NCBI GenBank assembly: GCA_016187565.1
Contig: JACPJR010000031.1
Span: forward strand, 9,796-73,795
Origin: Candidatus Woesearchaeota archaeon
Lineage (GTDB): Archaea > Nanobdellota > Nanobdellia > Woesearchaeales > JACPJR01
Length of the DNA: 64,000 nt
Direction of reading: 5' to 3'
This document shows positions 11,022 through 61,012 of the stretch, piece after piece. Positions within the stretch are counted from its first letter, which is position 1. Each line of letters opens with the position of its first letter. A program made the position numbers and the translations under genes. The notes under the pieces were generated by a model. The model was given only the letters and a program-made list of their open reading frames with translations, searched no databases and was not told the DNA's origin.

Positions 11022-11546
11022 ATGAGAGCAAAAAAACATAATTCTCTTATGAAACAAGCCAAAGATACAGCTCAGAAAAATACGAGAAATACCATGAACT
11101 CCATGAACCTTGTCATAGGATCTGATCATGCAGGCTTTGCCCTCAAGGAGCAATTAAAAACCTATCTTCAGAAAAAAGGATATAGGGTTGAGGATAAAGG
11201 TGTTTTCAGCGTAAATCCTGCTGATTATCCCTCTGTTGGACAAACCGTAGCTCAACAAGTAGCAAAAAAACATGAGCGTGGCATACTTATTTGTGGTACA
11301 GGTATTGGTATGTCTATTGTTGCCAACAAAGTGAAAGGCATTCGTGCAGCACTCTGCCATGACCTGAAGACCGCTCAGGCAAGTCGAGAGCATAATGATG
11401 CAAATGTCCTTTGTCTCGGGGGAAGAATTCTTGATACAGAAACTGCCCAAAGGATTACTGATGTTTGGTTAATGACTCCTTTCTCAAGTGAGGAACGTCA
11501 TCATCGAAGAATAAAACTTATCGATAGTATCGAGAAAGAATGTTAG
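11022..11546 (+). CDS. rpiB: Ribose-5-phosphate isomerase B
   Basis: LVIGSDHAGFALKEQL...GILICGTGIGMSIVANKV...LCLGGR are RpiB/LacAB signature regions. The true start is probably Met25 or Met28 (~11094-11103). Confidence 0.85.
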   Translation: MRAKKHNSLMKQAKDTAQKNTRNTMNSMNLVIGSDHAGFALKEQLKTYLQKKGYRVEDKGVFSVNPADYPSVGQTVAQQVAKKHERGILICGTGIGMSIVANKVKGIRAALCHDLKTAQASREHNDANVLCLGGRILDTETAQRITDVWLMTPFSSEERHHRRIKLIDSIEKEC

Positions 11547-40030: not shown

Positions 40031-40754
40031 ACTCAACAATAAAGTCGCTATTGTTACTGGTTCAAGTAGAGGGATTGGCAAATCCATTGCCCTTGCCTTT
40101 GCCAAAGAAGGTGCAGATGTTGTTATTACCTATAAATCTGAAGAGACAAAAGCAAAGGAAGTTGTAAACGCTATTAAGGCATTGAAGAGGGATGCAATTG
40201 CTGTAAAAGTCGATGTAAGTCAACGTAAAGATTTAATTGTTCTTGTCCAAGAAACCATGAAACATTTCAGAAGGATTGATATTTTGGTGAACAATGCAGG
40301 GATTAACAAACCCAGCGACTTTCTTGATATCACTGAAGAAGATTGGGATGCTATCATTGATACGAATCTCAAAGGAGCATTTTTATGCTCCCAGGAAGTC
40401 TTGAAAGTAATGAAGGAACAAAAAAGTGGTGTTATCATTAACATCTCCTCAGTGAGCGGTCAATATGGAGGCCCACGCACATGCCATTACGCGGTTTCTA
40501 AAGCTGGTCTCATCATGATGGGGTATAATCTTGCACTGAACTTTGCCAAGTACAATATCCGCGTTATTAATATTGCCCCAGGCGTTATCGAATCAGAAAT
40601 GGCCAAGGCAGCTGCAAGTCTCGATCTTAAAATTCCTTTACAGCGCCTTGGTAAAGCAGATGAAGTAGCAAAAGCAGCAGTTTTTTTAGCATCTGATGAT
40701 GCAAGTTATATTACCGCCTTTACCATGAATGTCAATGGCGGCTTGTATTTTTAG
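40017..40754 (+). CDS. Short-chain dehydrogenase/reductase, FabG-like (classical SDR)
   Basis: TGSSRGIGKSIA cofactor motif, an NNAG region, and the catalytic YAVSKAG (YxxxK). It overlaps the tkt end by 14 nt. Confidence 0.85.
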   Translation: MIYIKLNNKVAIVTGSSRGIGKSIALAFAKEGADVVITYKSEETKAKEVVNAIKALKRDAIAVKVDVSQRKDLIVLVQETMKHFRRIDILVNNAGINKPSDFLDITEEDWDAIIDTNLKGAFLCSQEVLKVMKEQKSGVIINISSVSGQYGGPRTCHYAVSKAGLIMMGYNLALNFAKYNIRVINIAPGVIESEMAKAAASLDLKIPLQRLGKADEVAKAAVFLASDDASYITAFTMNVNGGLYF

Positions 40755-40784
40755 TAACTAAGTTTTAGCAACAAGGTAAATCTC

Positions 40785-42014
40785 ATGCAAAAGCGATTAT
40801 TGGTTATTGGAGGAGGACCTGAGATGGTCCCTCTGTTTTCACTCACCAAGCAAATGGGATTACAAACAGTTGTCACTGATAGAGATCCTCATGCACCTGG
40901 TTTTTTATACGCAGATGATCATATTCTTGCAAGTACCAGGGATATTAAAGAGACAGTTGAGAAGGTTCTTGTTTTTCATGCAAAAAAACCAATTCATGGT
41001 GTTATGACCATTGCTAATGATGTTCCCTTGACGGTTGCCAGTGTCGCACGTGTCTTGCACTTGCCTGAAATCCCACCGCTTGAAATTGCTGAAATATTGT
41101 CTGATAAATTCAAGATGAAAGAGGTTTTTAAGGCATCTGGTATTCCATTACCATGGTTTCAACAGATCACCACTTTTAAAGAACTTCAGCAGATTGTTCA
41201 TGAACGTGGATTTCCTCTGGTCCTTAAGCCCGTAGATAACTGTGGGGGGAGGGGTGTCTTTCGGCTGACATCTGTGGATAATCTTCAGGAAGCATTCTCT
41301 ACTGCACAGACCTTTTCACGACGAGGAACCCTCCTTGTTGAAGCTTTTCTTGAAGGCCCACAGGTAAGTACTGAGTCCATTGTCTATCACGGAAGGGTTT
41401 ATACTATTGGATTTTCTGATCGGAATTATGAATTTTTAGAGAAGTATGCACCCCACTTCATTGAAAATGGTGGTGAGCTTCCGTCTCATCTCTCTCCAGC
41501 TGATCAACGCAAAATGTACCAGCTTCTGGAGAAAACTGCGCAGGCGCTTCATCTTACCAATGGTGTTCTTAAAGGGGATCTCATCCTCCACAATGGTGAA
41601 GCGAAAATTATCGAAGTGGCTGGCAGGTTAAGTGGGGGTTACTTTTGTACCCATGAAACACCACTTTCGACCGGTATTGAAATTGTTGTACCTGTTATTA
41701 AGATGGCTCTTGGAGAAAAGGTTGATGAACAGGACTTGAAACCAAAATACCACCGTGGAGTTTGCCAGCGTTATTTTTTTCCAACAGAAGGGAAGGTTGT
41801 TGCTGTTGAGGGCATTGATCAAGTCAAAAAACTTCCATGGGTAAAGCTTTTCTCGCTTAATGTTAAGATTGGAGACATTATTAAAAAACCAGTAGATTCT
41901 AATGCAAGTGTAGGAGTTATCATGACTATTGGAGAAACCAGAGAAGAGGCATTGGAGCGAATGGCTGAGGCAATGGCCCATATTAAGATAAAAACCATTA
42001 AACAAACATTGTGA
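40785..42014 (+). CDS. ATP-grasp ligase (carboxylate-amine ligase-like)
   Basis: Pre-ATP-grasp + ATP-grasp layout: LVLKPVDNCGGRGVFRL, with downstream acidic/Asn catalytic regions. 409 aa. Confidence 0.7.
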   Translation: MQKRLLVIGGGPEMVPLFSLTKQMGLQTVVTDRDPHAPGFLYADDHILASTRDIKETVEKVLVFHAKKPIHGVMTIANDVPLTVASVARVLHLPEIPPLEIAEILSDKFKMKEVFKASGIPLPWFQQITTFKELQQIVHERGFPLVLKPVDNCGGRGVFRLTSVDNLQEAFSTAQTFSRRGTLLVEAFLEGPQVSTESIVYHGRVYTIGFSDRNYEFLEKYAPHFIENGGELPSHLSPADQRKMYQLLEKTAQALHLTNGVLKGDLILHNGEAKIIEVAGRLSGGYFCTHETPLSTGIEIVVPVIKMALGEKVDEQDLKPKYHRGVCQRYFFPTEGKVVAVEGIDQVKKLPWVKLFSLNVKIGDIIKKPVDSNASVGVIMTIGETREEALERMAEAMAHIKIKTIKQTL

Positions 42015-42042
42015 AAACATAATCCAAAAAACGGAGGGTATT

Positions 42043-42726
42043 ATGAATATTTTAGTAGTCGCTGCACATCCTGACGATGAAGTGTTGGGTTGTGGAGGAA
42101 CAATGGTTCATCATGTTCGGCAAGGAGACAAGGTTTTTATATTAATCACCGGAGAAGGTATTACTGCACGGTATACTCATCGTGATCAAGCTAATTTACT
42201 GCATCTTGAAAACCTCCATGTTCAAACACAGAAAGTTGCCGATATTTTAGGAGCGACAAAGCTTTTTACTCATAATTTTCCTGACAATCGTTTGGACAGT
42301 GTTCCTTTACTTGATGTTATTAAAGTGGTTGAGAAGGTTCAACAAGAGGTAAAACCAGAAATGGTGTATACCCATCATCGTGCAGATTTAAACATAGACC
42401 ATCGTATTTTGTATCATGCAGTGCTGACTGCATGTCGACCTATGCAAAAGAGTCGTGTTAGAAGGATCCTTTCATTTTATAATATCTCATCAACTGAATG
42501 GAATGTACCTCCTCCTAAAGATCTTTTCTTTCCTAATGTCTTCGTTGATATTACTCGGTCGATGAAAACAAAGCTTAAAGCAATGAGTATCTATAAAACA
42601 GAACTGTGTAAATATCCTCATCCACGATCCTTAAAGGCAATAGAAAACACAGCGAAATATTGGGGTAATTGTGTTGGTTTTGAAGCTGCAGAACCGTTCA
42701 TGCTTGTTCGTGAGAGGATTACATGA
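42043..42726 (+). CDS. PIG-L/LmbE-family N-acetyl-sugar deacetylase
   Basis: Canonical N-terminus ILVVAAHPDDEVLGCGGTM, and HxxH in YTHHRADLNIDHR. Confidence 0.85.
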   Translation: MNILVVAAHPDDEVLGCGGTMVHHVRQGDKVFILITGEGITARYTHRDQANLLHLENLHVQTQKVADILGATKLFTHNFPDNRLDSVPLLDVIKVVEKVQQEVKPEMVYTHHRADLNIDHRILYHAVLTACRPMQKSRVRRILSFYNISSTEWNVPPPKDLFFPNVFVDITRSMKTKLKAMSIYKTELCKYPHPRSLKAIENTAKYWGNCVGFEAAEPFMLVRERIT

Positions 42727-43676
42727 GAACAGCATTTATTGGTGCGCTTATTGGCGGATATGATGCACTCAAAGCTTTGCTTGATAATGGGATTACTATT
42801 GATCTTGTTTTTACGCTTGATGAACATTATGCCGAAAATGTGAGCTGCTTTCAGTTATTTGATCCGCTCTTTAAGCAATACAATGTTCCATACTCTAAAA
42901 TAAAGGATATCAATGATCCAGAAAATATTTTGCGACTAAAAAATCTTAAACCAGATTTAATGATTGTTAATTGCTGGTCGCAACTTCTTACCAAGGAAAT
43001 TTTGGACATTCCTAGCATAGGAGTCCTTGGCATGCATCCTACCTTATTGCCAAAACATCGGGGACGAGCTCCAATTCCCTGGGCCCTTATCCACGGCCTT
43101 GATAAAACTGGTGTTACCTGGTTTTTTTATAATGAGAAACCAGATGCAGGTGATATTGTTGCGCAGCGTGAAATACCCATCACCTTTCAAGACACGGCGA
43201 TGTCCCTGGGCAAAAAGGTTGATACGGTTGCTATCGAACTTCTTATTGAGGCAGTAAAAAGCATCCAACAAGGCATCTACAAAAGAATTCCTCAGGATCA
43301 TACCCAGGCAACCTATTGGAAGCGAAGAAGACCAGAGGATGGTATTATTGACTGGAACAAAACAAATCTTGCATTGTATAATTGGGTACGAGCGTTGACA
43401 AGACCATATCCTGGAGCATTCACGTATCATAACGGAAAAAAACTCTTCGTGTGGAAAGCATCTCTTCCCTTAAAGGATTTAGCAGAGGTATCATTCACCA
43501 CAGAGGATGTCCGTACATCAGGTACTATTATGAATGTTGACCCTGATGGAATTACGGTAAGTACAGGACAAGGGAATCTTATCCTTGAAGAAGTCCAATA
43601 TGAAGATGAACCAGTTCTTAATTTAGCTCTTGCGACACTACACTTTCAAATAGGTGAGGTACTTGGTAATGTCTGA
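42723..43676 (+). CDS. Formyltransferase (Fmt/ArnA-N-like, N10-formyl-THF-dependent), probable sugar N-formyltransferase
   Basis: Formyl_trans_N catalytic block NCWSQLL...GVLGMHPTLLPKHRGRAPIPWALIHG...TGVT (HxSLLPxxRG motif) and a C-terminal Formyl_trans_C-like beta domain. It overlaps the LmbE stop (ATGA). Confidence 0.8.
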   Translation: MRTAFIGALIGGYDALKALLDNGITIDLVFTLDEHYAENVSCFQLFDPLFKQYNVPYSKIKDINDPENILRLKNLKPDLMIVNCWSQLLTKEILDIPSIGVLGMHPTLLPKHRGRAPIPWALIHGLDKTGVTWFFYNEKPDAGDIVAQREIPITFQDTAMSLGKKVDTVAIELLIEAVKSIQQGIYKRIPQDHTQATYWKRRRPEDGIIDWNKTNLALYNWVRALTRPYPGAFTYHNGKKLFVWKASLPLKDLAEVSFTTEDVRTSGTIMNVDPDGITVSTGQGNLILEEVQYEDEPVLNLALATLHFQIGEVLGNV

Positions 43677-51111: not shown

Positions 51112-53163
51112 TTAGATTACTTCACCGTCTGACGTATAAAACAAGACTTCGCCTAAAGCGACGTAGTATACTCCTGGCAAGTTAGGATTGAATAGCCTAA
51201 CTTGGATCATATTTGCTTGAATTGGTGTCGAAAGGTTATGAGTTGTTTTTATTAACTTTGTTGATAAGGGAATCTTTTGGTATGGAATAATTTCAACAAG
51301 TTCACCATTTGATGCATAGTAAGAAATGCTGTAATCTGCCCATGAATTAGGTGATTTGAGAACATCTTCAGCAAAGGCTGTTTTTTGGTAGTTTTGAACT
51401 ACATCTATCCTGTTGATAACTATTTCTTTGGTAAATGTAAAATTAACAGAGCAAATGTTCTTTGTATTACATCTCTCAGGGTTATCAGTTACCTCAGCAA
51501 TTATATATCTATTATCTGCCACTTTCCCATCAATAAGGGATTCTATCTTATATACTTCGGAGATACTTTCGTTTTTATTTGAACTGACTTTAATCGGTTG
51601 AGTGTATCCCCTTCGATTCGACAAATTTATGATTACAAAATGATCTGGAACCTTATAAAGTACTATGTCATAGGATGCATTTAAAAGCCCTTTTGAAAGA
51701 GAATTATTCTCAAATAAAAAAGAACTTTCTAAACGAACAACGTATTTTGCTCCTCTTTCTTTAGCATATTCAATAAACTCAAAGGTCATACCTTCAGGTG
51801 GAATGCGCCACCCTTGTATGTTGGCGTAATACATGTACGAAGGATTGATCATATCGGTAACAACAAGCTCATTGTCAGGAATAATCTGATCTATTTTTGA
51901 GAACATCTCGAAGGTAATGGGATCATATCTATGGGGTATTGGGCTATGCAATAAGATCATGATTGAAGAATACAGTAGGATCCCAGTTACCACTCCATAC
52001 CTGATGAAATTTCGTTCTTTACTTCCACGAAGAAACTGAAGCTCGGTTATCCTACTAAGGCTCCTTGCAGCAAAGATGGACATCGGTATCACCACTGGTA
52101 GGATATAGTAATGGTGGATAAAGGTTCGTTTTGCTGCAAAAATTAAGAAGACAGAAATGCCTAAAAAAAGGAAATGAGTGAAGTATCCTGAATGATTCTT
52201 TGGTTTCACAAATATTCCGAGTAATGCTAAAATTCCCCCAAGTAATCCAAGTGCAAAAAAGACTCTCCGTATAAACACTGTCTTGTACCATCCAATCTCT
52301 TTGTACAAGGGATATACCATAGGGCCCCACATAGGATCCTCGTCAGGGGTTTGTTGCATTTTAAAATCAAATAATTCAAAAGACAGACCCGTCTTTTCAT
52401 AAAGAGAAACAGTGTGTATGTAATACCAGTAATAAAAAGGAGTTAGGACAAGTATAAGAAAAAGCCATAATTTCCACCGAGTGAATATTCGAAGCCTATA
52501 TTTAACAACACCTAAAAAAAGTAGAGAAAATGGTAAATATAATACTACAGGCATTTTAACTAAAAACGCAAAAGCAGTTGTGGTTGTTGCAAGCACAAAA
52601 TACAGCCATGAATTTTCTTTATCTAACCATTTGGAAAAAAAATAAAGAGAAGCTAAAGAAAAAAAAGTTACCATGGATTCTGGCTGTAAATTTCTGCTCA
52701 TATGAACAAAGACTGGAGCAATTGCAAGAAAGAACATAGCAAACAATGCTGTTTTTTTGTTTTCGTAATGCTTAACAAGATGGTACATGATAATCAATGA
52801 ACTAATAGATAATAGTAGAGATGTAATCCTCCCTATGATGATGTGAACACCAAATATGGGATAAAAGAGCGCAATAACATAGGAATAAAGTGGGAATTCA
52901 CTCTGAACATATCCGGGTGTGTCTGCTCGCCAATCAACTTGGGGATAGAAAATGTTGTAGCCATTAAGATAAAAGTTCTTTGCAATTGCTGCAACATCTC
53001 CTTCTCTCCACGCATAATCTCCCACAAGAGGTAAATCAAGGTACTGGATCCGTAAATAGATTCCAAAGGCAAGAATCAAGACAAAAATGAGCGAAGTCTT
53101 ATTAAAGAAATCTAAGTGCTTTTTAGTAAAAAAATGATTAAATGGTTTTAGTCTTCTTGTCAA
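51112..53163 (-). CDS. GT-C membrane glycosyltransferase, ArnT/PMT-like (GT39/GT83-type) with C-terminal extracytoplasmic beta-rich domain
   Basis: N-terminal ~420 aa with 11+ TM helices and acidic-loop motifs (DLPLVGDYAWREGD), then a ~250-aa soluble domain. This architecture suggests a polyprenyl-phosphate-sugar-dependent transferase. Confidence 0.6.
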   Translation of the reverse strand: MTRRLKPFNHFFTKKHLDFFNKTSLIFVLILAFGIYLRIQYLDLPLVGDYAWREGDVAAIAKNFYLNGYNIFYPQVDWRADTPGYVQSEFPLYSYVIALFYPIFGVHIIIGRITSLLLSISSLIIMYHLVKHYENKKTALFAMFFLAIAPVFVHMSRNLQPESMVTFFSLASLYFFSKWLDKENSWLYFVLATTTTAFAFLVKMPVVLYLPFSLLFLGVVKYRLRIFTRWKLWLFLILVLTPFYYWYYIHTVSLYEKTGLSFELFDFKMQQTPDEDPMWGPMVYPLYKEIGWYKTVFIRRVFFALGLLGGILALLGIFVKPKNHSGYFTHFLFLGISVFLIFAAKRTFIHHYYILPVVIPMSIFAARSLSRITELQFLRGSKERNFIRYGVVTGILLYSSIMILLHSPIPHRYDPITFEMFSKIDQIIPDNELVVTDMINPSYMYYANIQGWRIPPEGMTFEFIEYAKERGAKYVVRLESSFLFENNSLSKGLLNASYDIVLYKVPDHFVIINLSNRRGYTQPIKVSSNKNESISEVYKIESLIDGKVADNRYIIAEVTDNPERCNTKNICSVNFTFTKEIVINRIDVVQNYQKTAFAEDVLKSPNSWADYSISYYASNGELVEIIPYQKIPLSTKLIKTTHNLSTPIQANMIQVRLFNPNLPGVYYVALGEVLFYTSDGEVI

Positions 53164-53257
53164 TGATGATTCCCCTCAACCCACATCCTTTTTTCACGGT
53201 TACTGTTTTAGAGTTCTTTGCAACTATTTAAACTATTCTATGTGTGAGATTTATTTT

Positions 53258-53725
53258 TTAGAAAAGTATTGTTGAGATCCAAAAGACCATAAGGCCGAGT
53301 AGAATTCCACCAATAATGTCAATCCAATCATGCTTCTTAAGGTAGATTCTTGAATACACTACTAAAATCATGAGGATGAAGAACCAAGCAGTAATAAAAC
53401 TGTTACTGAAGAAATTAATAAACACTAAGGAATAGAAAACAACCCTCGTTGCATGAAGACTTGGAAAGGATGACGCGTCAATTCTCTCCAAAAAGCCTGA
53501 ATAGTGTTGTTTGTTTGGTCTGTCCTTAAAATAAAAGGTTCGGATAAGAACCACGAAACCTGTAGTTGCAATAAATCCTAACAGGAGTTGGTAAAAAAGT
53601 TCTAACTCACCAATTCCTAAAACAAAAAGCATCATAATCCCATAGAAAAAAGAGCCGCCAAGGGTGGTAATGTCTCTAAAGAGTGATTGAATTAGCTCTT
53701 TGAACTGGTTTCTCATTACAACCAT
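53258..53725 (-). CDS. PAP2-family (phospho)lipid phosphatase
   Basis: PAP2 motifs KDRP (KxxxxxxRP), SFPSLHA (PSGH) and SRIYLKKHDWIDIIGG (SRxxxxxHxxxD). Confidence 0.7.
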   Translation of the reverse strand: MVVMRNQFKELIQSLFRDITTLGGSFFYGIMMLFVLGIGELELFYQLLLGFIATTGFVVLIRTFYFKDRPNKQHYSGFLERIDASSFPSLHATRVVFYSLVFINFFSNSFITAWFFILMILVVYSRIYLKKHDWIDIIGGILLGLMVFWISTILF

Positions 53726-53780
53726 ACAAGTAAGTATATATCGACAACTTTATAAATTTATCATCATTTCTTACTACGAC

Positions 53781-54827
53781 ATGAAATCAAAGACTTTTTT
53801 GGTAACTGGCGGTGCCGGCTTCTTGGGGATTAATCTTGTTCGCTTTTTGATTCAGAAAGGTCATATGGTTATTTCTGTTGATATCCAACCCTTTGATTAC
53901 CCTGATATGATACGGAAAGTCGAGGTTGTCAATGGAGATATTCGAAACCTTAGCATGCTTAAAAAGGCAATGAAAGGGGTTGATGTAGTGATACACACTG
54001 CAGCTGCCCTCCCTTTATATACAAAAAAAGAAATCTTCTCTACCGATGTTAAAGGTACTAAAAATGTTCTTGATGCTGCGAAAGAAAATAATGTTAAGCG
54101 GGTTATTCACATCTCAAGTACTGCAGTCTATGGCATCCCTGACCATCATCCGTTGTATGAAGATGATACATTAGATGGAGTTGGGAATTACGGCAAAGCA
54201 AAGATACTTGCCGAAAAAATATGTCTTGGATATAGAGAACAGGGAATGTGTGTGCCTATTTTACGACCCAAATCATTTATTGGACCAGAACGACTGGGAG
54301 TTTTTGCGATTTATTATGACTGGATAAAAAGCGGAAAAAGTGTTCCGATTGTTGGTTCTGGAAAAAATCGTTACCAATTGCTTGATGTAGAAGATCTGTG
54401 CGAAGCAATATACCTTTGTGCAATCAAGCCAAGACAAATAGTAAATGATACTTTTAACATTGGCGCAAAAGAATACACTACTATGAAGGAAGATTTTGGC
54501 GCTGTTCTTAAATATGCGGGATATGGCAAAAAGATTGTTCCAGTACCTGCGAAGCCCCTTATTTGGACATTGAGGTTCTTAGAGTTCTTGCATCTTTCTC
54601 CATTGTACAAATGGGTTTATGAGACTGCTCCAGAAGATTCATTTGTTTCTATTGAGAAAGCAGAAAAAGTTCTTGGTTTTGTACCAAAGTATTCCAATAA
54701 GCAAGCATTGATTCGAAATTATGAGTGGTACTTGAAGAACTATAGTGAGTACCAGAACAGAACAGGAGTTACTCATAGGGTTCCTTGGAAGCAGGGGATT
54801 TTAGGAGTAATAAAGCATTTTTTTTGA
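53781..54827 (+). CDS. NAD-dependent epimerase/dehydratase (extended SDR)
   Basis: TFLVTGGAGFLGINLV and YGKAKILAE (YxxxK). The track ORF begins at 53700 and overlaps the PAP2 gene on the opposite strand. The Met at ~53781 (MKSKTFLVTG) is the likely start. Confidence 0.8.
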   Translation: MKSKTFLVTGGAGFLGINLVRFLIQKGHMVISVDIQPFDYPDMIRKVEVVNGDIRNLSMLKKAMKGVDVVIHTAAALPLYTKKEIFSTDVKGTKNVLDAAKENNVKRVIHISSTAVYGIPDHHPLYEDDTLDGVGNYGKAKILAEKICLGYREQGMCVPILRPKSFIGPERLGVFAIYYDWIKSGKSVPIVGSGKNRYQLLDVEDLCEAIYLCAIKPRQIVNDTFNIGAKEYTTMKEDFGAVLKYAGYGKKIVPVPAKPLIWTLRFLEFLHLSPLYKWVYETAPEDSFVSIEKAEKVLGFVPKYSNKQALIRNYEWYLKNYSEYQNRTGVTHRVPWKQGILGVIKHFF

Positions 54828-54847
54828 ATCTTCTCGTTTTATCCCCC

Positions 54848-55717
54848 TCAGTTAAAAAGTCCTGAATACATGATAACGAGAGTTAAGAGAGTCCATAAGG
54901 CAATTCCAATAACCATCTCTTTGTCAGTAATTACTTTTTCTGGATGTCTGGCGATAATCGATCCGCTATGAATAAGGTAGAAGTAGCGAAAAATAACAAA
55001 AAGTGCAAGAGGAAGGGTGTAAATTAGTTTTGTATAGTTGCTTAAAAAAGAGTATAAAGCATAGGAGATGACTAATAAAGCAGTTGAAATGTTCATAAGC
55101 GCGTTGGTTAATCCAAGGCTGTAGCTATCTAACACTTTTCTTGTTTCCACTGCCTTCTCTTTGAGAAAGAGTACCTCACCATGACGTTTTCCTATCGACA
55201 TAAATAAGGACAAGAAAAATGGACAAAGGATTAGCCAAGGAGATACCGTAACGTTAATAGCAAAAGCTCCCAAAAGAGCACGGGTCACAAAAAGCGTAGC
55301 AATAGTCAAGATGTCAGCACAAAGAATATGCTTTAGGAAAAAGGTATATATTTGAGAAAACAGAAAAAACAGAACTAGGCCTACAAAAAACAGAGAACCG
55401 AGCAAGAAACCTAAGTAAAACCCAAAACCAAGGAGTGCAACTGCTATTACTATTGCAGTACTTACCTTCATTCTCCCACTAGGAAGTGACCTTAATTTTT
55501 TCTCAGGATGGAGACGATCTTTTTCTACGTCAACAAGATCATTAATGATATAGTTTGATGAAGAGATAAACGAAAGAGATAAGAAGGCGAGGAGCGTTAA
55601 GAAAAGCGAATGAAGATCGAATAATTGTCCTATAAAGAACAGTGCTAAGAAAACAACTAAATTCTTGTACCACTGTCGTACTCTTATAAGATCAACATAA
55701 ACAGAGAGTTTTGTCAT
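54848..55717 (-). CDS. UbiA-family prenyl-phosphate phosphoribosyltransferase-like (DPPR synthase / Rv3806c-like)
   Basis: LIRVRQWYKNLVVFLALFF and NDLVDVEKDRLHPEKKLRSLPSGRM match the decaprenyl-phosphate 5-phosphoribosyltransferase subgroup (RPRQWVKN...; NDxxDxExDRxHPxKxxRPLxSG). They do not match DGGGP synthase. 8-9 TM helices. Confidence 0.65.
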   Translation of the reverse strand: MTKLSVYVDLIRVRQWYKNLVVFLALFFIGQLFDLHSLFLTLLAFLSLSFISSSNYIINDLVDVEKDRLHPEKKLRSLPSGRMKVSTAIVIAVALLGFGFYLGFLLGSLFFVGLVLFFLFSQIYTFFLKHILCADILTIATLFVTRALLGAFAINVTVSPWLILCPFFLSLFMSIGKRHGEVLFLKEKAVETRKVLDSYSLGLTNALMNISTALLVISYALYSFLSNYTKLIYTLPLALFVIFRYFYLIHSGSIIARHPEKVITDKEMVIGIALWTLLTLVIMYSGLFN

Positions 55718-55910: not shown

Positions 55911-56918
55911 ATGAAACAACGAATTTTTATTACTGGCGTCGCAGGATTTCTCGGAAGTCATCTCGCTGATACCATGATTGCAAAAGGTCATCATGTTATT
56001 GGTTGTGATAGCTTAATTGGTGGCTATCTGGATAATGTGCCAAGTCAGGTTGAATTCTATCAATATGATTGCAATTATCTCAATTCGATGAAAAAGATTA
56101 TGAAGGATGTTGATATAGTTTACCATTGTGCAGCAACAGCCTATGAAGGGTTAAGCGTTTTCTCTCCGTATCTAGTAACTAAAAATGTGTATCAGTGTAC
56201 AGCCTCTGTTGTTTCTGCAGCAGTTGCAACGAATGTTAAACGTTTTGTTCTTTGCTCAAGTATGGCACGATATGGGGAGAATAAGGTTCCTTTTACTGAG
56301 GATATGGAACCAAAACCTCAAGATCCTTATGGTATTGGAAAATATGCTTCAGAATTATTGGTTAGAAACGTTGCCCAAACCCACAACATGGAATATGTTA
56401 TTGCAGTTCCTCACAATATCATAGGGCCACGGCAAAAATATGATGATCCTTATCGAAATGTTGCTTCGATTATGATTAATATGATGCTCCAGGGAAGACA
56501 GCCTATTATCTATGGAGATGGCGAACAAAAACGCTGCTTTTCATTTGTTCAGGATTGCATTCAATGTTTAGAAAAATTAGCTTTTGAGAAGAATATTTCT
56601 GGAGAAATTATAAATATTGGTCCAGATGAAGAAGTTATCACTATTAATGAGCTTGCAAAGATTATTGCTGAACTTCTTAATTTTAAATTACATCCCATGT
56701 ACATGCCTGATCGGCCACAGGAAGTAAAACTTGCAACCTGTTCTGCAAATAAAGCAAGAAAGCTCCTTGGTTATCAAACAAAATATGCCCTTAGGCAAGG
56801 ACTTCAAGAGATGATTATGTATATTAAAGGACGAGGCCCCAAGCCTTTTAAGTACCATCTTGATCTTGAAATTGTTAATGAACGTACACCGAAAACATGG
56901 AAAGATAGAATGTTCTGA
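55911..56918 (+). CDS. NAD-dependent epimerase/dehydratase (extended SDR, nucleotide-sugar modifying)
   Basis: IFITGVAGFLGSHLAD and YGIGKYASE (YxxxK). 335 aa. Confidence 0.85.
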   Translation: MKQRIFITGVAGFLGSHLADTMIAKGHHVIGCDSLIGGYLDNVPSQVEFYQYDCNYLNSMKKIMKDVDIVYHCAATAYEGLSVFSPYLVTKNVYQCTASVVSAAVATNVKRFVLCSSMARYGENKVPFTEDMEPKPQDPYGIGKYASELLVRNVAQTHNMEYVIAVPHNIIGPRQKYDDPYRNVASIMINMMLQGRQPIIYGDGEQKRCFSFVQDCIQCLEKLAFEKNISGEIINIGPDEEVITINELAKIIAELLNFKLHPMYMPDRPQEVKLATCSANKARKLLGYQTKYALRQGLQEMIMYIKGRGPKPFKYHLDLEIVNERTPKTWKDRMF

Positions 56919-57024: not shown

Positions 57025-57980
57025 ATGCACGCTTCAAATTTTCCTAAATTTCCTAAAATCTCAGTAATTGTTATTAATTATAATGGTATTGGTTTTCTTA
57101 AAGACTGTTTTGAATCATTAGAATCAGTTGATTATCCAGACTATGAGGTTTTTTTAATGGATAATGCCTCAACTGATGACTCTGTTACTTATGCTCAGAA
57201 AACATTTCCTTGGGTAAAAATCCTTGCGTTTGACAAGAACTATGCCTTTGCTGAGGGATATAACCGTGCAGTTAATTCTATCACTAGTGAATACCTTTAT
57301 TTTCTGAACAATGATACAAAGGTTGACAAGAATTTTTTGAAAGAGGCAATAAAGCCCATGCTTGAAGATAGTACTATTGCTGTGTGTGGGAGTAAAATGT
57401 ATTTTTATGATAAACCGGCTCATCTCAATTATGCTGGTGGTAAAATAACTCAGGTCTTGCCTGTGGCGGAGCAATGCTTGTGAAAAGATATCTTTTTCTT
57501 GATATTGGAGGATTTGATCCCTCGTACGTTATCTATTTTGAGGATGTTGATCTTGCCTGGCGTGCATGGCTCTATGGGTATAAGGTGGTTTATGTGCCCA
57601 TGTCTGTTGTGTATCATAAGTATGGAGGATATTTTGGGGGTTTTAATAAATCCAGCAGAAGTGTTTACCTCGGCCAAATCAATCGTTTAAGTAATCTTTG
57701 GAAGAATGCAGAACCGTTTACTGTTTTTAAAGGAAGCCTTCTTTCATTACTGTATGACCTCGTGAAAAGTGCTTATTTTTTACGCTACCTCCGATTTTCT
57801 CGATGGCTTGCTTTGCATAAAGGAAACATCGCATTTCTTATGAAACTACCAAGAGTATTGCAACAACGAAAGACCGTACAACAGCGACGGAAATATTCAG
57901 ATAAATGGTTGATGCAGAACAACATCATTGCAAGCCTCAATGAGAGTATTGCGGTCTTTTTTCGACTTTTGAAGATATAA
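57025..57980 (+). pseudogene. GT2 glycosyltransferase interrupted by a frameshift near 57440-57476 (pseudogene or homopolymer sequencing error)
   Basis: ORF 57025..57483 carries the GT2 N-terminus (KISVIVINYNG...LMDNASTDDS). ORF 57474..57980, in another frame, carries the C-terminal GT2 block. Extending the second frame back gives ...SGLACGGAMLVKRYLFLDIGGFDPSYVIYFEDVDL. The junction lies in the aaaataact run. Confidence 0.6.
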
Positions 57981-58055
57981 GTTGTTTAACAATATCCCCA
58001 ACAGAATAATTTAATATACTATGCACGTTTACCCGCTTTCTATAATCTGTTTTTA

Positions 58056-59042
58056 ATGATCATGACATCAACAATACGAACAACATACCGATGGATATTC
58101 TATTTGATCGGCTTTATTCTTTTATTTTTTATTATAACACAAGTTGATCTCCAAGAGGTTCTCGCTATTTTTGCCCAAGCAAAACTTCATCTTATTGCGC
58201 TAGGACTGTTGGTTTCCTTGGTTCTGGTTGTTTTCCGTGCCTTAAAATGGCATTGGGTTCTTTCTATCTATGGTATTTCACTGCCTTTTCGAAAGACCTT
58301 TACTTATTACATTATGGGAGCTTCGCTTGGTATGATCTCACCAGCAAAACTTGGAGAATTCACCAAGATGATCCCACTCAGAAAATACGCCTTATTTCCT
58401 GTGTTCATGAGCATTTTTCTTGATCGACTATCTGATTTCTTGATTCTGTTAAGCATTGGTCTTCCTGGACTTTTTTTTGTGTATGATGTCATACCTGAGC
58501 AAGCACTTTTCATTGCTATAGTTCTGCTGATGGTTGTTCTGTTTGGGATTCTTCTTTTGTTTCAAAATATCCCACTATTCCTTTTTAAGCTCGCTCAAAA
58601 AATATATCATAAAAAATTATCTACATCTTCATCTGTTCAGTCACCTAGCTTCAATGCTTCTCTAGAGAAAAAAGCACATCTTTCATTGAGAAACATCTTT
58701 TCGTTGATGCTTTTTTCTCTGTTTTGTTGGAGTCTTTCTTTTCTTGCTACAGTCTTTTTGGCACGGTCACTAGAAATAAACCTTCCTGTTCTTATTATTC
58801 TCGTTGTCACTGCTGCTTATACGATTGTTGATTTATTACCCATTAGCATTCTCGGTATTGGAACCAGAGATTCTCTTGTTATTCTTCTTTTTGGTATGTA
58901 TGGAATCTCTTGGGAGCTTGCGCTTGCATACTCAACCCTTATTTTAGCAAGTACGATTTTTGTTGTCATTGTTCCTTATAGTCTCCTCTTCTTTTTTTCC
59001 TTTTTTGCTAAAAAACACATTTCCCATGGTGATCTCGAATGA
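58056..59042 (+). CDS. LPG-synthase-TM/UPF0104 family membrane protein (flippase-like)
   Basis: 8 TM helices with a C-terminal ...ISILGIGTRDSLVILLFGMYGIS... block typical of this family. The family often accompanies GT2 enzymes. Confidence 0.45.
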   Translation: MIMTSTIRTTYRWIFYLIGFILLFFIITQVDLQEVLAIFAQAKLHLIALGLLVSLVLVVFRALKWHWVLSIYGISLPFRKTFTYYIMGASLGMISPAKLGEFTKMIPLRKYALFPVFMSIFLDRLSDFLILLSIGLPGLFFVYDVIPEQALFIAIVLLMVVLFGILLLFQNIPLFLFKLAQKIYHKKLSTSSSVQSPSFNASLEKKAHLSLRNIFSLMLFSLFCWSLSFLATVFLARSLEINLPVLIILVVTAAYTIVDLLPISILGIGTRDSLVILLFGMYGISWELALAYSTLILASTIFVVIVPYSLLFFFSFFAKKHISHGDLE

Positions 59043-61012
59043 ATTTCAAAACAAATCAAGGACTTTCTCTTCGTAACATCATCTTTACTCTTGTTATTCC
59101 ACTTTTCTTTTATTTTTTCTCTCTTTTTTCTGCTTTTCTTGCATTTCCACTTCCAGCAAAAATGTTCCTCTCCTTTTACGTGTTTATTCTCTTTCCAGGA
59201 CACCTTCTGTCTTTACTTCTTTTTCACACCATGAGAAGAACAGCACTTCTCCATCTGTTTTTTTCTTTTGCCTCAGGCCTTTTGTTTTTGAGTGTATTCT
59301 CACTGATAGGCTATGTATTTCAGACTTCTCTTACCTTTATTTTTTTTCTTGTTATCGCTCTTACTTTTATTCTCACTCTTTTGATTGTTTTGCTCCCTTA
59401 TATATCTTCGCTTCGATTTTCTCTTCCCACTTTCTCTGAAACTTCTTCTTCTATTTTTCCTGTGCTTATTATCCTTTTTTTAATGCTCTTCATTTCATTT
59501 GTTGGCTACACGCATCCTGCTCCTGATACAGGTGATATTTGGTATAATATGGCTGTGAACCGAGAGATGGTTATCCTTGATGCTATTTCTCCTTTTATCC
59601 CCATTCTTAATATTCCTGAAATAGACCCCGCCTACGGTCTTAACACTTGGTATGTTATGACTTCCCTTATGGTTAAACTATCTGGCGTTGATCCAGTATT
59701 CTTTAATACTCATCTTTCTTTCCTTGTACTTCCTTTTTTTCTTGTTGCCTTTTTTGCATTTGGTATGCGATTGTTTGAGAATAACCAGACAATGGGATAT
59801 CTTTCCGCTATCCTTGGGTTTCTCTTTCTTGTAATTCAGCCATTCCTTGACTACATTTATTATTCGGGCTTTCAGCGATATATCATGCTTTTTTTTATTA
59901 TGCCATTCCTATTCTACCTCACTTTTGAATATCTCTCCCGGCCGACTACTTCTCTGCGGTTTATAATTGCAATTACAGTTTCTCTTTTTTCATGGTTTCA
60001 CTCGATGGTACTCTTTCTTTTTTTTCTTGCGCTCGTATTTTTTGCTCTAGGAGTGATACTCTTTTCAAAGAGTTTTCATGATGTTTTTTCTTCTCAATCC
60101 CATTTTCACCGAATTGTTCTATTATTTTTCCTATCTTTTCTCTTGAGCACACCCACTATTCTTGTCAAATTTTTTAACTATGGCGCTGGAGGAATTCCTC
60201 CAACGTATCCTACTCAGCTATTTCTATCTAAAACTCTCTTTCTTATCAACCCAATTTCTTATCTAAAAATGCCCGTTATTCTCTCGCTGTTTGTTTGCGT
60301 TCCTCTTTTTTTCTTCAAACGAGAAAAAATCTGGTCAGTGTTTCTTGTATCTCTCTTTTTCTTTCCCCTTATTGTTCTATTTACTCCCCCATTAATAACG
60401 TTTCTCTCTACTATCCTTTCCATTCGCCTGCTTGTTAAAATGGACTATCTTATGCCACTTGTTTACCTCTTGGCATATGGATTATTCATCTTCCTTTCCT
60501 TTATTACTACCCATTCTTTTTTCAGTCAACGAAAAAAAACGATTGTATTTCTGATCGTTCCTTTAATTCTCTTTGGTGCTCTACTCCTTCTCGTTCCAGC
60601 CTCTGCAAATCTTACAAAGGGAAGCATTCAGGCATGGAAAACAAAGCAACCATTCTCCTTAAAACCTACTGAATTATTTATGCAAGAAACCCTTACACCA
60701 GGAAGTACGCTTACTTCGAGTGATGTCATTGCGAATCTTGCGATTAGTTCTCGAGTACCTGTCTTTGTACTTACTATTTATGGTGGACATCTTCCGTCAC
60801 TTAACCTTACGGAGCGTGTGCAAGCGATGAATATCATTTTCAATTCTTCCACAAGTATTAACGATACACTTATGTCTCTTCAAACCTATAACATTACCTA
60901 CATTTATGTGAATACAGAAAAAGATGATCCACAAAAATTCGTTGTATCGCCTCTCCATTTCAGGGAGGTCTACAGCAAAGATGGCAAGATGATTTTTCAG
61001 ATGAATCAATAA
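59039..61012 (+). CDS. Polytopic membrane protein, putative GT-C fold glycosyltransferase
   Basis: 657 aa with ~14 TM helices and a ~130-aa C-terminal soluble domain ending ...YIYVNTEKD...FREVYSKDGKMIFQMN, similar to the C-terminus of the PMT_2-like protein at 51112-53163. No WWDYG (AglB/STT3) motif is present. Confidence 0.4.
   Translation: MNFKTNQGLSLRNIIFTLVIPLFFYFFSLFSAFLAFPLPAKMFLSFYVFILFPGHLLSLLLFHTMRRTALLHLFFSFASGLLFLSVFSLIGYVFQTSLTFIFFLVIALTFILTLLIVLLPYISSLRFSLPTFSETSSSIFPVLIILFLMLFISFVGYTHPAPDTGDIWYNMAVNREMVILDAISPFIPILNIPEIDPAYGLNTWYVMTSLMVKLSGVDPVFFNTHLSFLVLPFFLVAFFAFGMRLFENNQTMGYLSAILGFLFLVIQPFLDYIYYSGFQRYIMLFFIMPFLFYLTFEYLSRPTTSLRFIIAITVSLFSWFHSMVLFLFFLALVFFALGVILFSKSFHDVFSSQSHFHRIVLLFFLSFLLSTPTILVKFFNYGAGGIPPTYPTQLFLSKTLFLINPISYLKMPVILSLFVCVPLFFFKREKIWSVFLVSLFFFPLIVLFTPPLITFLSTILSIRLLVKMDYLMPLVYLLAYGLFIFLSFITTHSFFSQRKKTIVFLIVPLILFGALLLLVPASANLTKGSIQAWKTKQPFSLKPTELFMQETLTPGSTLTSSDVIANLAISSRVPVFVLTIYGGHLPSLNLTERVQAMNIIFNSSTSINDTLMSLQTYNITYIYVNTEKDDPQKFVVSPLHFREVYSKDGKMIFQMNQ

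Follow-up and report, generated by a model that had tools for sequence, protein, structure and literature searches.

Gene content of the locus

The window analysed here is the whole 64,000-nucleotide stretch of a contig from a very small, uncultured archaeon of the Woesearchaeota. It contains four adjacent genes: a GT-C fold glycosyltransferase of the PMT_2/ArnT-like kind (683 aa; 51112..53163, minus strand; Pfam PMT_2 E=3.8e-21, PMT E=2.3e-9), a PAP2-family membrane phosphatase (155 aa; 53258..53725, minus strand; Pfam PAP2 E=8e-14), an extended SDR with the NAD-dependent epimerase/dehydratase fold (348 aa; 53781..54827, plus strand; Pfam Epimerase E=8.5e-43), and a UbiA-superfamily protein assigned to the DPPRS/PPPRS type of polyprenyl-phosphate 5-phosphoribosyltransferases (289 aa; 54848..55717, minus strand; Pfam UbiA E=1.2e-22). 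All four genes are thus present where the original prediction placed them, and Pfam bears out each of its family calls. The SDR ORF was first called at 53700-54827(+) from a TTG at 53700; its start is most likely the ATG at 53781, since the protein is 348 aa long on sibling contigs and homologues measure 345-350 aa. Since the four ORFs alternate between strands, they require three or more transcription units, which counts against a single pathway.

Conservation of the gene neighbourhood

Gene order was compared across 80 species-level related archaeal genomes. The core that recurs in them is a GT-C, UbiA and then a phosphatase (PAP2 or PHP), and the UbiA-phosphatase-GT-C linkage is found in both Woesearchaeota and haloarchaea. 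A PMT_2-type GT-C occurs within 2 genes of UbiA in 38/80 loci, mostly at -1 on the same strand, and PAP2 stands at +1 or -1 of UbiA in 22/80, a position held by 22 of the 23 PAP2 homologues; these frequencies place the adjacency beyond chance. Co-conservation of all four genes, as anticipated by the original prediction, was not observed: besides the limited occurrence of PAP2, an SDR orthologue adjoins UbiA in only ~5/80 genomes, and the usual GT-C partner is a different PMT_2 protein of ~489 aa. Elsewhere, the phosphatases in DPPRS-UbiA/SDR clusters belong to the PAP2, PHP, HAD or EEP families, and haloarchaeal DPPRS modules include a Mannosyl_trans4 (AglS-type) GT-C. Halostagnicola larsenii XH-48 is one of the haloarchaea with a homologous module.

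The extended SDR as a candidate epimerase

The motifs of the SDR are invariant (G-x-x-G-x-x-G, S112-S-T-A-V-Y-G and Y137-x3-K141). No close characterised relative was found, the best PDB matches reaching ~99 bits. The protein is probably the epimerase of a lipid-linked ribofuranose, the weakest step of the proposed pathway. Members of its family lie beside DPPRS-type UbiA genes in Woesearchaeota, haloarchaea (on megaplasmids), Patescibacteria (CPR), Streptomyces, Nonomuraea and rhizobia. Eight plasmid matches were examined (the seven of highest identity, H1-H7, and H13), and all are in or beside a UbiA cluster. Among them is Rhizobium sp. CCGE531 pRCCGE531b, a candidate pentofuranose system in Kelly et al. 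(PMC11127046); the SDR of that rhizobial cluster is 34% identical to the window SDR over its full length.

It is possible, but rather unlikely, that the pathway ends at lipid-P-ribofuranose and that the substrate of the SDR is a nucleotide sugar destined for the neighbouring Wzx/Wzy glycan, with its proximity to UbiA reflecting only a shared glycan island. Most related Woesearchaeota loci indeed consist of UbiA, phosphatase and GT-C without the SDR, the nearest solved structures are nucleotide-sugar enzymes, and a second nucleotide-sugar-type SDR is encoded at 55911-56918. In addition, ~80% of SDR-seeded metagenome loci have no adjacent UbiA, which counts against a lipid-linked substrate; one UbiA-free setting is a conserved Ignavibacteria-like context next to ribosomal protein genes. 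In favour of the linkage, 14/82 of these SDR-seeded loci have a DPPRS-type UbiA no more than 3 genes away. SDR-UbiA adjacency also recurs in at least six phyla from two domains, with boundaries that are often immediate or overlapping, a pattern difficult to account for unless the two genes share a pathway. Moreover, the genetics of Kelly et al. show that an SDR so placed alters a lipid-derived pentose (PMC11127046). In this reading the SDR appears to be an accessory that determines the pentose transferred; it is absent from most related Woesearchaeota, which would add plain ribofuranose.

That pentose was originally predicted to be ribose or arabinose-like, with the SDR as a possible one-enzyme substitute for DprE1/DprE2; an arabinose-forming SDR found no direct support. 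An NAD-retaining SDR could in principle epimerise any secondary hydroxyl via a keto intermediate, and no DprE1- or DprE2-like gene was found in the cluster or the window, as such a substitution would have it. However, 2'-epimerisation yielding a lipid-P-arabinofuranose donor is improbable, given that the sequence gives no sign of C2 regiospecificity and that a Flammeovirgaceae plasmid carries a distinct type of arrangement, DPPRS with an FAD-oxidoreductase and a short-SDR. The sole characterised single-SDR precedent, Citrobacter youngae O2 ORF13, gives xylofuranose through C3 epimerisation, whereas all arabinofuranose systems surveyed by Kelly et al. carry DprE1/E2 homologues (PMC11127046).

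The PAP2 phosphatase and its replacements

The PAP2 protein is the candidate 5'-phosphatase that would convert lipid-P-ribose-5-P to lipid-P-ribose. Its three catalytic motifs are intact (R62-x6-RP, P88-S-L-H and S125-R-x5-H-x3-D) and invariant in 24 UbiA-adjacent homologues. In other clusters its place is taken by a PHP phosphatase (7 Woesearchaeota loci and 3 haloarchaeal plasmids), by a HAD phosphatase (Patescibacteria, Lactococcus and rhizobia, fused in the last) or by an EEP phosphatase (Streptomyces). This exchange of unrelated phosphatases at UbiA indicates a conserved dephosphorylation step.

PAP2 active sites usually face outward, which is an awkward fit with cytoplasmic dephosphorylation and would better suit a BcrC/PgpB-like phosphatase recycling dolichyl- or polyprenyl-diphosphate for the whole glycan island. 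Lipid diphosphate is released by Wzx/Wzy and AglB pathways, and the NCBIfam similarity of the PAP2 protein is limited to weak undecaprenyl-diphosphate phosphatase matches (41 bits). Nevertheless, we give a recycling role little chance: the homologues are placed strictly next to UbiA, and the substitutes found elsewhere are cytoplasmic PHP, HAD or EEP enzymes, unable to recycle externally released lipid diphosphate. In Mycobacterium tuberculosis, too, the PAP2 protein Rv3807c adjoins Rv3806c (PMC3229680).

The UbiA protein as a DPPRS-type phosphoribosyltransferase

The best NCBIfam match of the UbiA protein is decaprenyl-phosphate phosphoribosyltransferase NF008977 (DPPRS) at 219.4 bits, 15 bits short of the curated equivalog cutoff of 234, which counts against the assignment. 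It scores at most 38.9 bits on DGGGP-synthase models and at most 58 bits on other prenyltransferase models. Similarly, phmmer searches of the PDB gave E=8.7e-30 for Rv3806c (8j8j) and E=4.7e-6 for DGGGPS (6m31). When the residue roles of Rv3806c (PMC10994848) are mapped onto the protein, 14/16 Mg, PRPP and DP-phosphate (substrate or catalytic) positions are identical (R22, K28, Y70, N73, D74, D77, D81, K87, R90, Y138, K143, K191, R192 and K208), and these are mostly invariant across 26 Woesearchaeota sequences. Among them are K28 and Y70, ligands of the 5'-phosphate that are unconserved in ordinary UbiA enzymes (PMC10994848). The two differences are Y157 to F and Q135 to S; the latter, a ribose O3 ligand in Rv3806c, is S/T/N in the homologues and likewise counts against the assignment. 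Both motifs quoted in the original prediction are literally there (R12-V-R-Q-W-Y-K-N19 and N59-D-L-V-D-V-E-K-D-R-L-H-P-E-K-K-L-R-S-L-P-S-G81), with most positions invariant in 26 homologues.

The UbiA proteins of equivalent clusters behave alike, all scoring 143-240 bits on DPPRS models and below 55 on other prenyltransferase models. Thus, the protein groups with Rv3806c, as had been proposed, and not with DGGGP synthases or quinone/heme prenyltransferases, and at the level of sequence its assignment to the DPPRS type is strongly supported. The idea that it is one of those ordinary prenyltransferases in a coincidental neighbourhood, suggested by superfamily membership, common Asp-rich motifs and the DGGGP synthase expected in an archaeal genome, has almost no probability left and is effectively refuted by the model scores, the PDB matches, the retained phosphoribose-specific ligands and the comparators. 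The lipid acceptor of the DPPRS-type enzyme is probably dolichyl phosphate; DPANN archaea may possibly have no polyprenol synthesis of their own, which counts against the pathway as a whole.

The GT-C transferase

The GT-C protein has ~13 TM helices, an extracytoplasmic alpha/beta domain (aa ~410-520) and a beta-rich C-terminal region. Its AlphaFold model has a pLDDT of 68 overall and is of high confidence for residues 20-520. The best Foldseek match in the PDB is ArnT (5ezm; E=5.5e-10, TM 0.64), with further matches to AglB, STT3, ALG9/12, PglB, AftA and, weakly, Emb; the ArnT/PMT-like call thus agrees with both Pfam and the predicted fold. The loop-1 residues R53, D56, N63, D77 and E89 are kept. 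Only 12 homologues were found among 5.8 billion proteins, and no similarity was detectable to the 658-aa GT-C-sized protein of the rhizobial cluster. The beta-rich C-terminal ~164 aa (51115..51606, minus strand) are of low confidence (pLDDT <50 for residues 520-683), have no Pfam or PDB sequence match even at E<=10, and are missing from the homologues (coverage 59-73%, with two partial matches at 27-29%). This region is possibly a carbohydrate-binding module.

Flippase candidate and glycan-assembly genes

No flippase is encoded within the four-gene span, and no SMR, GtrA or MATE flippase is present, which counts against a complete pathway. A candidate lipid-P-sugar flippase is the LPG_synthase_TM/'flippase-like domain' membrane protein at 58056..59042 (328 aa, plus strand; Pfam LPG_synthase_TM E=1.6e-34), which scores 50.7 bits on the NCBIfam flippase-like domain TIGR00374 (cutoff 43.2). 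Three haloarchaeal megaplasmids carry genes of this family in translational coupling with PHP and DPPRS, and the Streptomyces cluster has a member too. In the window, by contrast, the coupling partners of the gene are a GT2 and a 657-aa membrane protein, which counts against it, and its membership of the module is uncertain. The segment 45701..51096 (plus strand) encodes a Wzx-like flippase, an Epimerase_2/Glyphos_transf protein, a hexapeptide acetyltransferase and a Wzy_C polymerase/ligase-like protein (Pfam Polysacc_synt, Epimerase_2, Hexapep, Wzy_C). These genes are a probable assembly set for the acceptor glycan, and their membership of the module is inferred. The same layout recurs on a Lactococcus plasmid (Wzy-Wzx-(GT-C-sized protein)-DPPRS-phosphatase-GtrA).

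A proposed pathway and its relation to known systems

Most likely, the four Woesearchaeota genes would charge a membrane lipid with a five-carbon sugar taken from PRPP and deliver that sugar to a surface glycan outside the cell. At the cytoplasmic face, the UbiA-type enzyme would use PRPP to place 5-phosphoribose on a polyprenyl monophosphate, presumably dolichyl phosphate in this archaeon. The adjacent PAP2 would then strip the 5'-phosphate to leave lipid-P-ribofuranose, which the cytoplasmic extended SDR, with tightly bound NAD, would probably epimerise at C3 (to xylofuranose, the only option with a characterised single-SDR precedent) or at C2 (to arabinofuranose). Following flipping, for which the nearby LPG_synthase_TM protein is a candidate, the ArnT-like GT-C would pass the pentofuranose, outside the membrane, to a surface glycan or glycoprotein, likely one made by the Wzx/Wzy-type genes nearby.

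These results support the core logic of the original prediction, namely that the DPPRS-type UbiA, the phosphatase and the GT-C serve to produce and consume a polyprenyl-phospho-pentofuranose donor. The locus is well supported as an archaeal example of an already known type of system, lipid-linked pentose glycosylation; the lipid-linked pentofuranose pathway in an archaeal form, with every step as proposed, is a somewhat favoured reading. The pathway is already well known from mycobacteria and other bacteria. Kelly et al. (PNAS 2024, PMC11127046) defined a three-component pentofuranose system, widespread in bacteria, in which a single SDR leads to xylofuranose and DprE1/E2 to arabinofuranose, and every step has experimental precedent in bacteria (PMC11127046). 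A literature search found no paper characterising such a pathway in Archaea, in line with the novelty originally claimed; the case is less unprecedented than that claim implied, given the bacterial system and given that NCBI already names archaeal homologues 'decaprenyl-phosphate phosphoribosyltransferase'.

The C. youngae O1/O2 system (ORF15-ORF14-ORF12, plus ORF13 in O2; PMC11127046) resembles the locus in its PRPP-using UbiA-type polyprenyl-phosphate phosphoribosyltransferase, dedicated 5'-phosphatase, optional single SDR epimerase setting pentose identity, GT-C with an extra C-terminal beta-rich domain, and position inside a surface-polysaccharide gene cluster. In contrast, the window belongs to an archaeon with presumably dolichyl-P as lipid, its phosphatase is a separate PAP2 and not a fused HAD (PRP) domain, it has no MATE or SMR flippase, and its GT-C has a PMT_2/ArnT-like sequence; GT136, by contrast, was established because it resembled no existing family. 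The mycobacterial decaprenyl-phospho-arabinose pathway (Rv3806c, Rv3807c, DprE1/DprE2, Emb/Aft) likewise has a DPPRS-type UbiA, in which PRPP, Mg and lipid-phosphate ligands are conserved, an adjoining small PAP2 gene and GT-C transferases that use lipid-P-pentofuranose outside the membrane. It differs in its FAD oxidase (DprE1) and classical SDR (DprE2), in place of an extended SDR, and in its Emb/Aft families, in place of one ArnT-like 683-aa GT-C; the likely window product is a side-chain decoration and not an arabinan polymer.

Pilin arabinosylation by Pseudomonas aeruginosa TfpW (PsPA7 D-Araf genes) also combines a PPPRS homologue, a separate phosphatase and a GT-C decorating a surface protein (PMC11127046), but it relies on homologues of DprE1/DprE2 and its GT-C is specific for pilin; the window module has no linked pilin or archaellin gene. 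ArnT, whose solved structure comes nearest to the window GT-C, also uses a polyprenyl-monophosphate pentose, in the undecaprenyl-phosphate-L-Ara4N modification of lipid A; however, its donor is derived from a UDP-sugar via a GT2 enzyme (ArnC) and not from PRPP via UbiA, and its acceptor is absent from Archaea. An archaeal precedent for a flipped lipid-monophosphate sugar with GT-C-type transfer outside the cell is Haloferax volcanii AglD/AglR/AglS, which mannosylates the N-glycan externally from Dol-P-Man. Unlike the window module, it handles a hexose from a nucleotide sugar via GT2, with no PRPP, phosphatase or epimerase. Elsewhere in the window, the two genes originally proposed as sources of ribose-5-P were confirmed, the fused transketolase as ORF 38123-40030 and rpiB as ORF 11022-11546, which encodes RpiB.

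Gene content and setting of the module

All four ORFs of the predicted module are present in the window, and Pfam upheld every family call with E-values of 1e-14 to 1e-43. They encode a GT-C transferase (51112–53163, minus strand, 683 aa; PMT_2, E = 3.8e-21), a PAP2 phosphatase (53258–53725, minus strand, 155 aa), an extended SDR (53781–54827, plus strand, 348 aa) and a UbiA protein (54848–55717, minus strand, 289 aa). The predicted start of the 348-aa SDR is most likely the ATG at 53781, because sibling contigs, which come from several runs of one sequencing project, call the same start and the lengths of homologues agree. PAP2 and GT-C are read in the same direction, and the SDR points away from PAP2 and towards UbiA, which lies 1.1 kb from PAP2; this alternating orientation implies at least three transcription units. 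The PAP2/GT-C junction (53163–53258) varies among sibling contigs (L001 and L002 versus the window and L004), with either a 637-aa GT-C and a 233-bp spacer or a 683-aa GT-C and a 95-bp spacer, which is strain-level variation of the GT-C N-terminus.

Pfam matches and annotation of the window place the module in a glycan-biosynthesis island at 43–64 kb. The island also encodes a GH57 enzyme, a Wzx-like flippase, an Epimerase_2/Glyphos_transf protein, a hexapeptide acetyltransferase, a Wzy_C protein, a second SDR, GT2 enzymes, an LPG_synthase_TM flippase-like protein, methyltransferases and a FemAB-like protein. Upstream of it, a small separate cluster (40017–43676) holds a classical SDR resembling FabG or glucose dehydrogenase, an ATP-grasp protein resembling L-amino-acid ligases, a PIG-L deacetylase and a formyltransferase, which points to a pathway for a modified amino sugar. 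Within the island, a 70-bp deletion near 57452, relative to sibling contig L001, splits a GT2 gene (57025–57980) in two, leaving ORFs of 152 and 168 aa; L001 has the gene intact at 341 aa. Either the split gene is a pseudogene at strain level or the deletion is a variant of the assembly.

The UbiA protein belongs with the phosphoribosyltransferases

The best NCBIfam match of the UbiA protein is NF008977 (decaprenyl-phosphate phosphoribosyltransferase) at 219.4 bits, which lies below the curated equivalog cutoff of 234, followed by NF008978 at 169.8 bits. The best model of a prenyltransferase other than a phosphoribosyltransferase scores 57.9 bits, and the DGGGP synthase, heme O synthase and quinone prenyltransferase models all stay at or below 58 bits. 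A Halostagnicola homologue clears the NF008977 cutoff at 240.5 bits, and NCBI labels some Woesearchaeota homologues as DPPRS, the Rv3806c-type phosphoribosyltransferase. One NCBI protein from an uncultured Candidatus Woesearchaeota (DPANN) matches the window protein with 100% identity. Against the PDB, the Rv3806c cryo-EM structure is matched with E = 8.7e-30 and DGGGP synthase with E = 4.7e-6.

In Rv3806c, Mg2+ is bound by N73 and D77, pyrophosphate by R22, K87, R90, K143, Y138 and K208, the ribose by N73 and Q135, the 5'-phosphate by K28, Y70 and Y157, and the head group of decaprenyl phosphate by K28, Y157 and K191 (PMC10994848). In a MAFFT alignment, 14 of the 16 ligand positions checked are identical in the window protein. 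The exceptions are Y157, replaced by F, which is also a natural mycobacterial variant (PMC10994848), and Q135, replaced by S here and by S, T or N in homologues. Ordinary UbiA prenyltransferases do not conserve the phosphoribose ligands (PMC10994848), so it is telling that 26 Woesearchaeota sequences keep these ligands invariant. The protein contains, letter for letter, the two motifs given in the original prediction. On sequence grounds it is an Rv3806c-type phosphoribosyltransferase whose nearest UbiA subfamily is DPPRS, with the catalysis itself predicted; HMM scores and ligand residues rule out a DGGGP synthase or an ordinary prenyltransferase.

Co-conservation and the dephosphorylation step

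The four genes had been proposed to form one module, which is expected to be kept together in related genomes. An alignment of UbiA homologues was used as a query, with one genome per species, yielding 80 loci, nearly all from Woesearchaeota or Nanoarchaeota, whose neighbouring genes were clustered and then searched with iterated profiles. The recurrent co-directional core is GT-C, then UbiA, then a phosphatase. A PMT_2 GT-C, mostly of about 489 aa, lies within two genes of UbiA in 38 of the 80 loci (22 of the 48 whose two flanks each span 3 kb or more), and PAP2 stands directly beside UbiA in 22. Its place is taken by a PHP-domain phosphatase in seven loci and by an alkaline-phosphatase-superfamily enzyme in two. 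Orthologues of the window SDR (68–75% identical) adjoin UbiA in only four loci, with one further SDR at 41% identity. Measured against the co-conservation condition of the original prediction, the outcome is thus mixed: the logic of the module is conserved across these loci, and the exact set of four genes is not.

Many records in this set are titled 'uncultured Methanosarcinales archaeon' (L007, L009, L011, L012 and others); their UbiA proteins are 55–60% identical to the Woesearchaeota protein and the synteny is the same, and as taxonomy these titles are probably not reliable. An S_layer_C-domain protein of about 800 aa is encoded one to five genes upstream of UbiA in L026 and two other Woesearchaeota loci, in two of them at position -1, and is a possible acceptor glycoprotein.

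A PRPP-derived 5-phosphoribosyl lipid needs to lose its phosphate after the UbiA step, and the window encodes a candidate 5'-phosphoribose phosphatase together with the phosphoribosyltransferase. The PAP2 protein shares with Rv3807c of M. tuberculosis its family, its small size and its position beside the UbiA gene. The catalytic motifs C1, C2 and C3 (R62-x6-RP, PSLH and SR-x5-H-x3-D) are intact and are invariant in 24 UbiA-adjacent homologues, so the protein is by motif predicted to be catalytically competent, with 5'-phosphoribose as its putative substrate. Across all the clusters found, four mutually unrelated phosphatase families (PAP2, PHP, HAD and EEP) alternate at one position beside the UbiA gene. 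In our view, no other indirect evidence speaks more strongly than this exchange for the need to remove a phosphate after the UbiA step, and unrelated phosphatases beside a UbiA gene might serve as a bioinformatic marker for finding such systems.

The extended SDR as a candidate pentose epimerase

In the homologue alignment, the SDR has an invariant NAD motif (G-x-x-G-x-x-G), an invariant Y137-x3-K141 and an invariant S-S-T-A-V-Y-G segment, which is epimerase-like and unlike the T-D-E-V-Y-G of 4,6-dehydratases. It is an extended SDR (adh_short gives 17 bits, short of its cutoff) and has no close characterised relative, its best PDB matches reaching about 99 bits. Family members are 66–78% identical in Woesearchaeota, Nanohalarchaeota, Patescibacteria, Gracilibacteria, Ignavibacteria and Anaerolineae, about 50% (49–51%) in haloarchaea, and 34–41% in actinomycetes and rhizobia. 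When metagenomes were scanned with the SDR as seed, 14 of 82 loci (8 of 38 with long flanks) had a DPPRS-type UbiA gene no more than three genes away. For a gene present about once per genome, a rough calculation puts the number of such loci expected by chance at well below one.

Many of the SDR loci without UbiA represent a single Ignavibacteria-like synteny beside ribosomal protein genes. Contigs L087 and L089 and about 24 metagenome loci among L090–L169 encode an SDR that shares 66–70% identity with the archaeal one; it is flanked by a ribosomal-protein/EF-Ts block on one side and a deoxyhypusine-synthase-like gene on the other, and no UbiA gene occurs inside 7 kb. Even in these stand-alone loci the sequence is conserved across domains. 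As a large, unnamed and very conserved family of probable pentose-diversifying enzymes, these SDRs are a promising lead.

The closest precedent is bacterial. In Citrobacter youngae, a HAD::UbiA enzyme was shown experimentally to form polyprenyl-P-ribofuranose from PRPP, a small transporter flips this lipid, and a single cytoplasmic SDR, ORF13, changes the side chain from ribofuranose to xylofuranose (Kelly et al., PNAS 2024, PMC11127046). The corresponding profile, an extended SDR with the NAD glycine motif and Y-x3-K beside a phosphoribosyltransferase of this type, is present in the window and in many taxa. The original prediction saw the SDR as a possible one-enzyme replacement for DprE1/DprE2 in 2'-epimerisation, with a ribose or arabinose-like pentofuranose as the donor sugar. 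Such a single-enzyme substitute is possible; ORF13, the only characterised single-SDR precedent, points to C3 epimerisation instead, and in the survey by Kelly et al. arabinofuranose glycans accompany DprE1/DprE2 homologues (PMC11127046). The two-enzyme route itself, a DprE1 with a classical short SDR beside DPPRS, does not occur in the window: the cluster contains no DprE1-like FAD oxidoreductase, tblastn of the window with a Woesearchaeota flavin amine-oxidase-like protein and a rhizobial GMC oxidoreductase returned nothing, and the classical SDR at 40017–40754 is FabG- or glucose-dehydrogenase-like, which rejects it as a DprE2 orthologue.

The amine-oxidase-like protein has 426 aa, scores 253 bits, above the cutoff of NCBIfam NF005560 ('hypothetical protein'), and is encoded near a DPPRS-type UbiA in 13 of the 80 Woesearchaeota loci (L023, L043, L048, L053, L056, L066, L071, L079 and others). 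It adjoins the SDR in several loci (L090, L106) and could be a DprE1-like oxidase partner, although the window does not encode it.

The GT-C transferase and candidate flippases

The AlphaFold model of the GT-C protein is confident for residues 20–520. In structure searches it comes closest to ArnT (E = 5.5e-10, with a TM-score of 0.64 when normalised to ArnT); AglB, STT3, ALG9/12, PglB and AftA come next, and Emb ranks lower. R53, D56, N63, D77 and E89 are conserved and lie after the first transmembrane helix, the usual place of GT-C catalytic acids. The last ~164 residues are beta-rich and modelled with low confidence, and have no Pfam or PDB sequence match at E ≤ 10; a visual impression of a discoidin-like domain was dropped for these reasons. 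Only 12 homologues are detectable in a collection of 5.8 billion proteins, all without this C-terminal region. Membership of CAZy family GT136, that of C. youngae ORF12, is unlikely because the window protein belongs to PMT_2. By hhalign it showed no relation to the rhizobial 658-aa GT-C-sized protein (probability 0.2%) and no similarity to a 657-aa membrane protein of the window.

Transfer outside the cell would require flipping of the lipid-linked sugar. No SMR homologue was found in the window, nor any small-transporter family of the MATE/SMR/GtrA kind among the Pfam matches at 45–61 kb. The LPG_synthase_TM flippase-like protein at 58056–59042 is a candidate flippase of the module on account of the coupling of this family to DPPRS in haloarchaea. 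Its gene is operonic with a GT2 gene and the gene of the 657-aa membrane protein. It is not a regular partner in Woesearchaeota, being near UbiA in none of the 80 loci. The stretch 57025–61012, in which GT2, LPG_synthase_TM protein and 657-aa polytopic membrane protein follow each other with overlapping gene boundaries, looks like a second three-component set for a lipid-linked sugar; searches of Pfam and NCBIfam with the 657-aa protein gave no match, and it shows no detectable similarity to the GT-C profile.

Relation to bacterial systems and proposed route

Read from the proteins themselves, the module encodes a DPPRS-type phosphoribosyltransferase, a PAP2 phosphatase with intact catalytic motifs, an NAD-dependent extended SDR and an ArnT-like GT-C. 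Like the three-component systems of Kelly et al., it combines a phosphoribosyltransferase, a candidate phosphatase and a GT-C; it differs in lacking a MATE, SMR or GtrA flippase. Rhizobium sp. CCGE531 (CP032687) is among their candidate systems (PMC11127046), and the window SDR matches that same cluster. The module is well supported as an archaeal representative of a type of system that was defined recently and is widespread in Bacteria. Its logic is not new, and archaeal homologues of the key enzyme are already named in public annotation. Archaea are not treated by Kelly et al. (PMC11127046), and a full-text literature search found no paper describing the route in Archaea. The core of the original prediction stands; arabinose was too specific and the novelty overstated.

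From conserved context and the bacterial experiments, PRPP and a lipid phosphate, assumed to be dolichyl phosphate, would give lipid-P-ribose-5-P, which would be dephosphorylated and then optionally epimerised. The lipid-linked pentose would be flipped and transferred extracytoplasmically to a surface glycan. A fuller reading makes the SDR a single-enzyme lipid-phospho-ribofuranose epimerase and the module the first archaeal route of lipid-linked Xylf/Araf glycosylation, with dolichyl phosphate as carrier and the ArnT-like GT-C decorating the episymbiont cell envelope; we offer it tentatively, judging its chances to be a little below even. If confirmed, PRPP-derived lipid-linked pentofuranose glycosylation would extend from Bacteria to Archaea (DPANN and Halobacteria), and archaeal surface glycobiology would gain a new type of sugar donor, from a chemistry whose known occurrences so far are the mycobacterial cell wall, Pseudomonas pili and Gram-negative O antigens.

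Distribution on plasmids and in other phyla

The SDR adjoins UbiA in Streptomyces and Nonomuraea, and the Streptomyces cluster also encodes an EEP-family phosphatase and an LPG-synthase-domain protein. A Patescibacteria genome combines UbiA, the SDR (71% identical), a HAD phosphatase and a small EamA/SMR-like transporter, and rhizobial symbiotic plasmids carry the SDR, an SMR transporter, a GMC oxidoreductase, a 658-aa membrane protein, a second SDR and a HAD::UbiA fusion. The UbiA proteins of these clusters and of the haloarchaeal ones described below score 143–240 bits on DPPRS models and below 55 bits on other prenyltransferase models; the top match of the rhizobial protein is the HAD-fused UbiA model NF006088 (609 bits). 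The other two types of system are exemplified by a Lactococcus plasmid (Wzy, Wzx, a GT-C-sized protein, DPPRS, HAD and GtrA, with no epimerase) and a Flammeovirgaceae plasmid (DPPRS, FAD oxidoreductase and short SDR).

Each of the eight plasmid matches of the SDR that were examined, which include the top seven by identity, is located within or next to a UbiA cluster. A search of IMG/VR for viral copies of the archaeal UbiA gave no confirmed match, and tblastn of UbiA against phages returned nothing. A Halanaeroarchaeum genome report lists PHP, DPPRS and epimerase genes within a 'phage-like element' without comment (PMC4866403). Haloarchaeal megaplasmid carriers are Natronococcus (two strains), Halostagnicola and Haloterrigena, and the UbiA of Natronococcus CG52 is 38% identical to that of the window. 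On the three annotated megaplasmids, genes for an LPG_synthase_TM protein, a PHP phosphatase and DPPRS are accompanied by a divergently transcribed SDR and AglS-type GT-C, and two of these plasmids also encode a GT39 GT-C. As these carriers are cultured, the prediction is testable without growing the Woesearchaeote. Two haloarchaeal DPPRS modules (L171 and L173) have sulfotransferase and adenylyl-sulfate kinase genes as neighbours, which hints that they belong to the context of a sulfated glycan.
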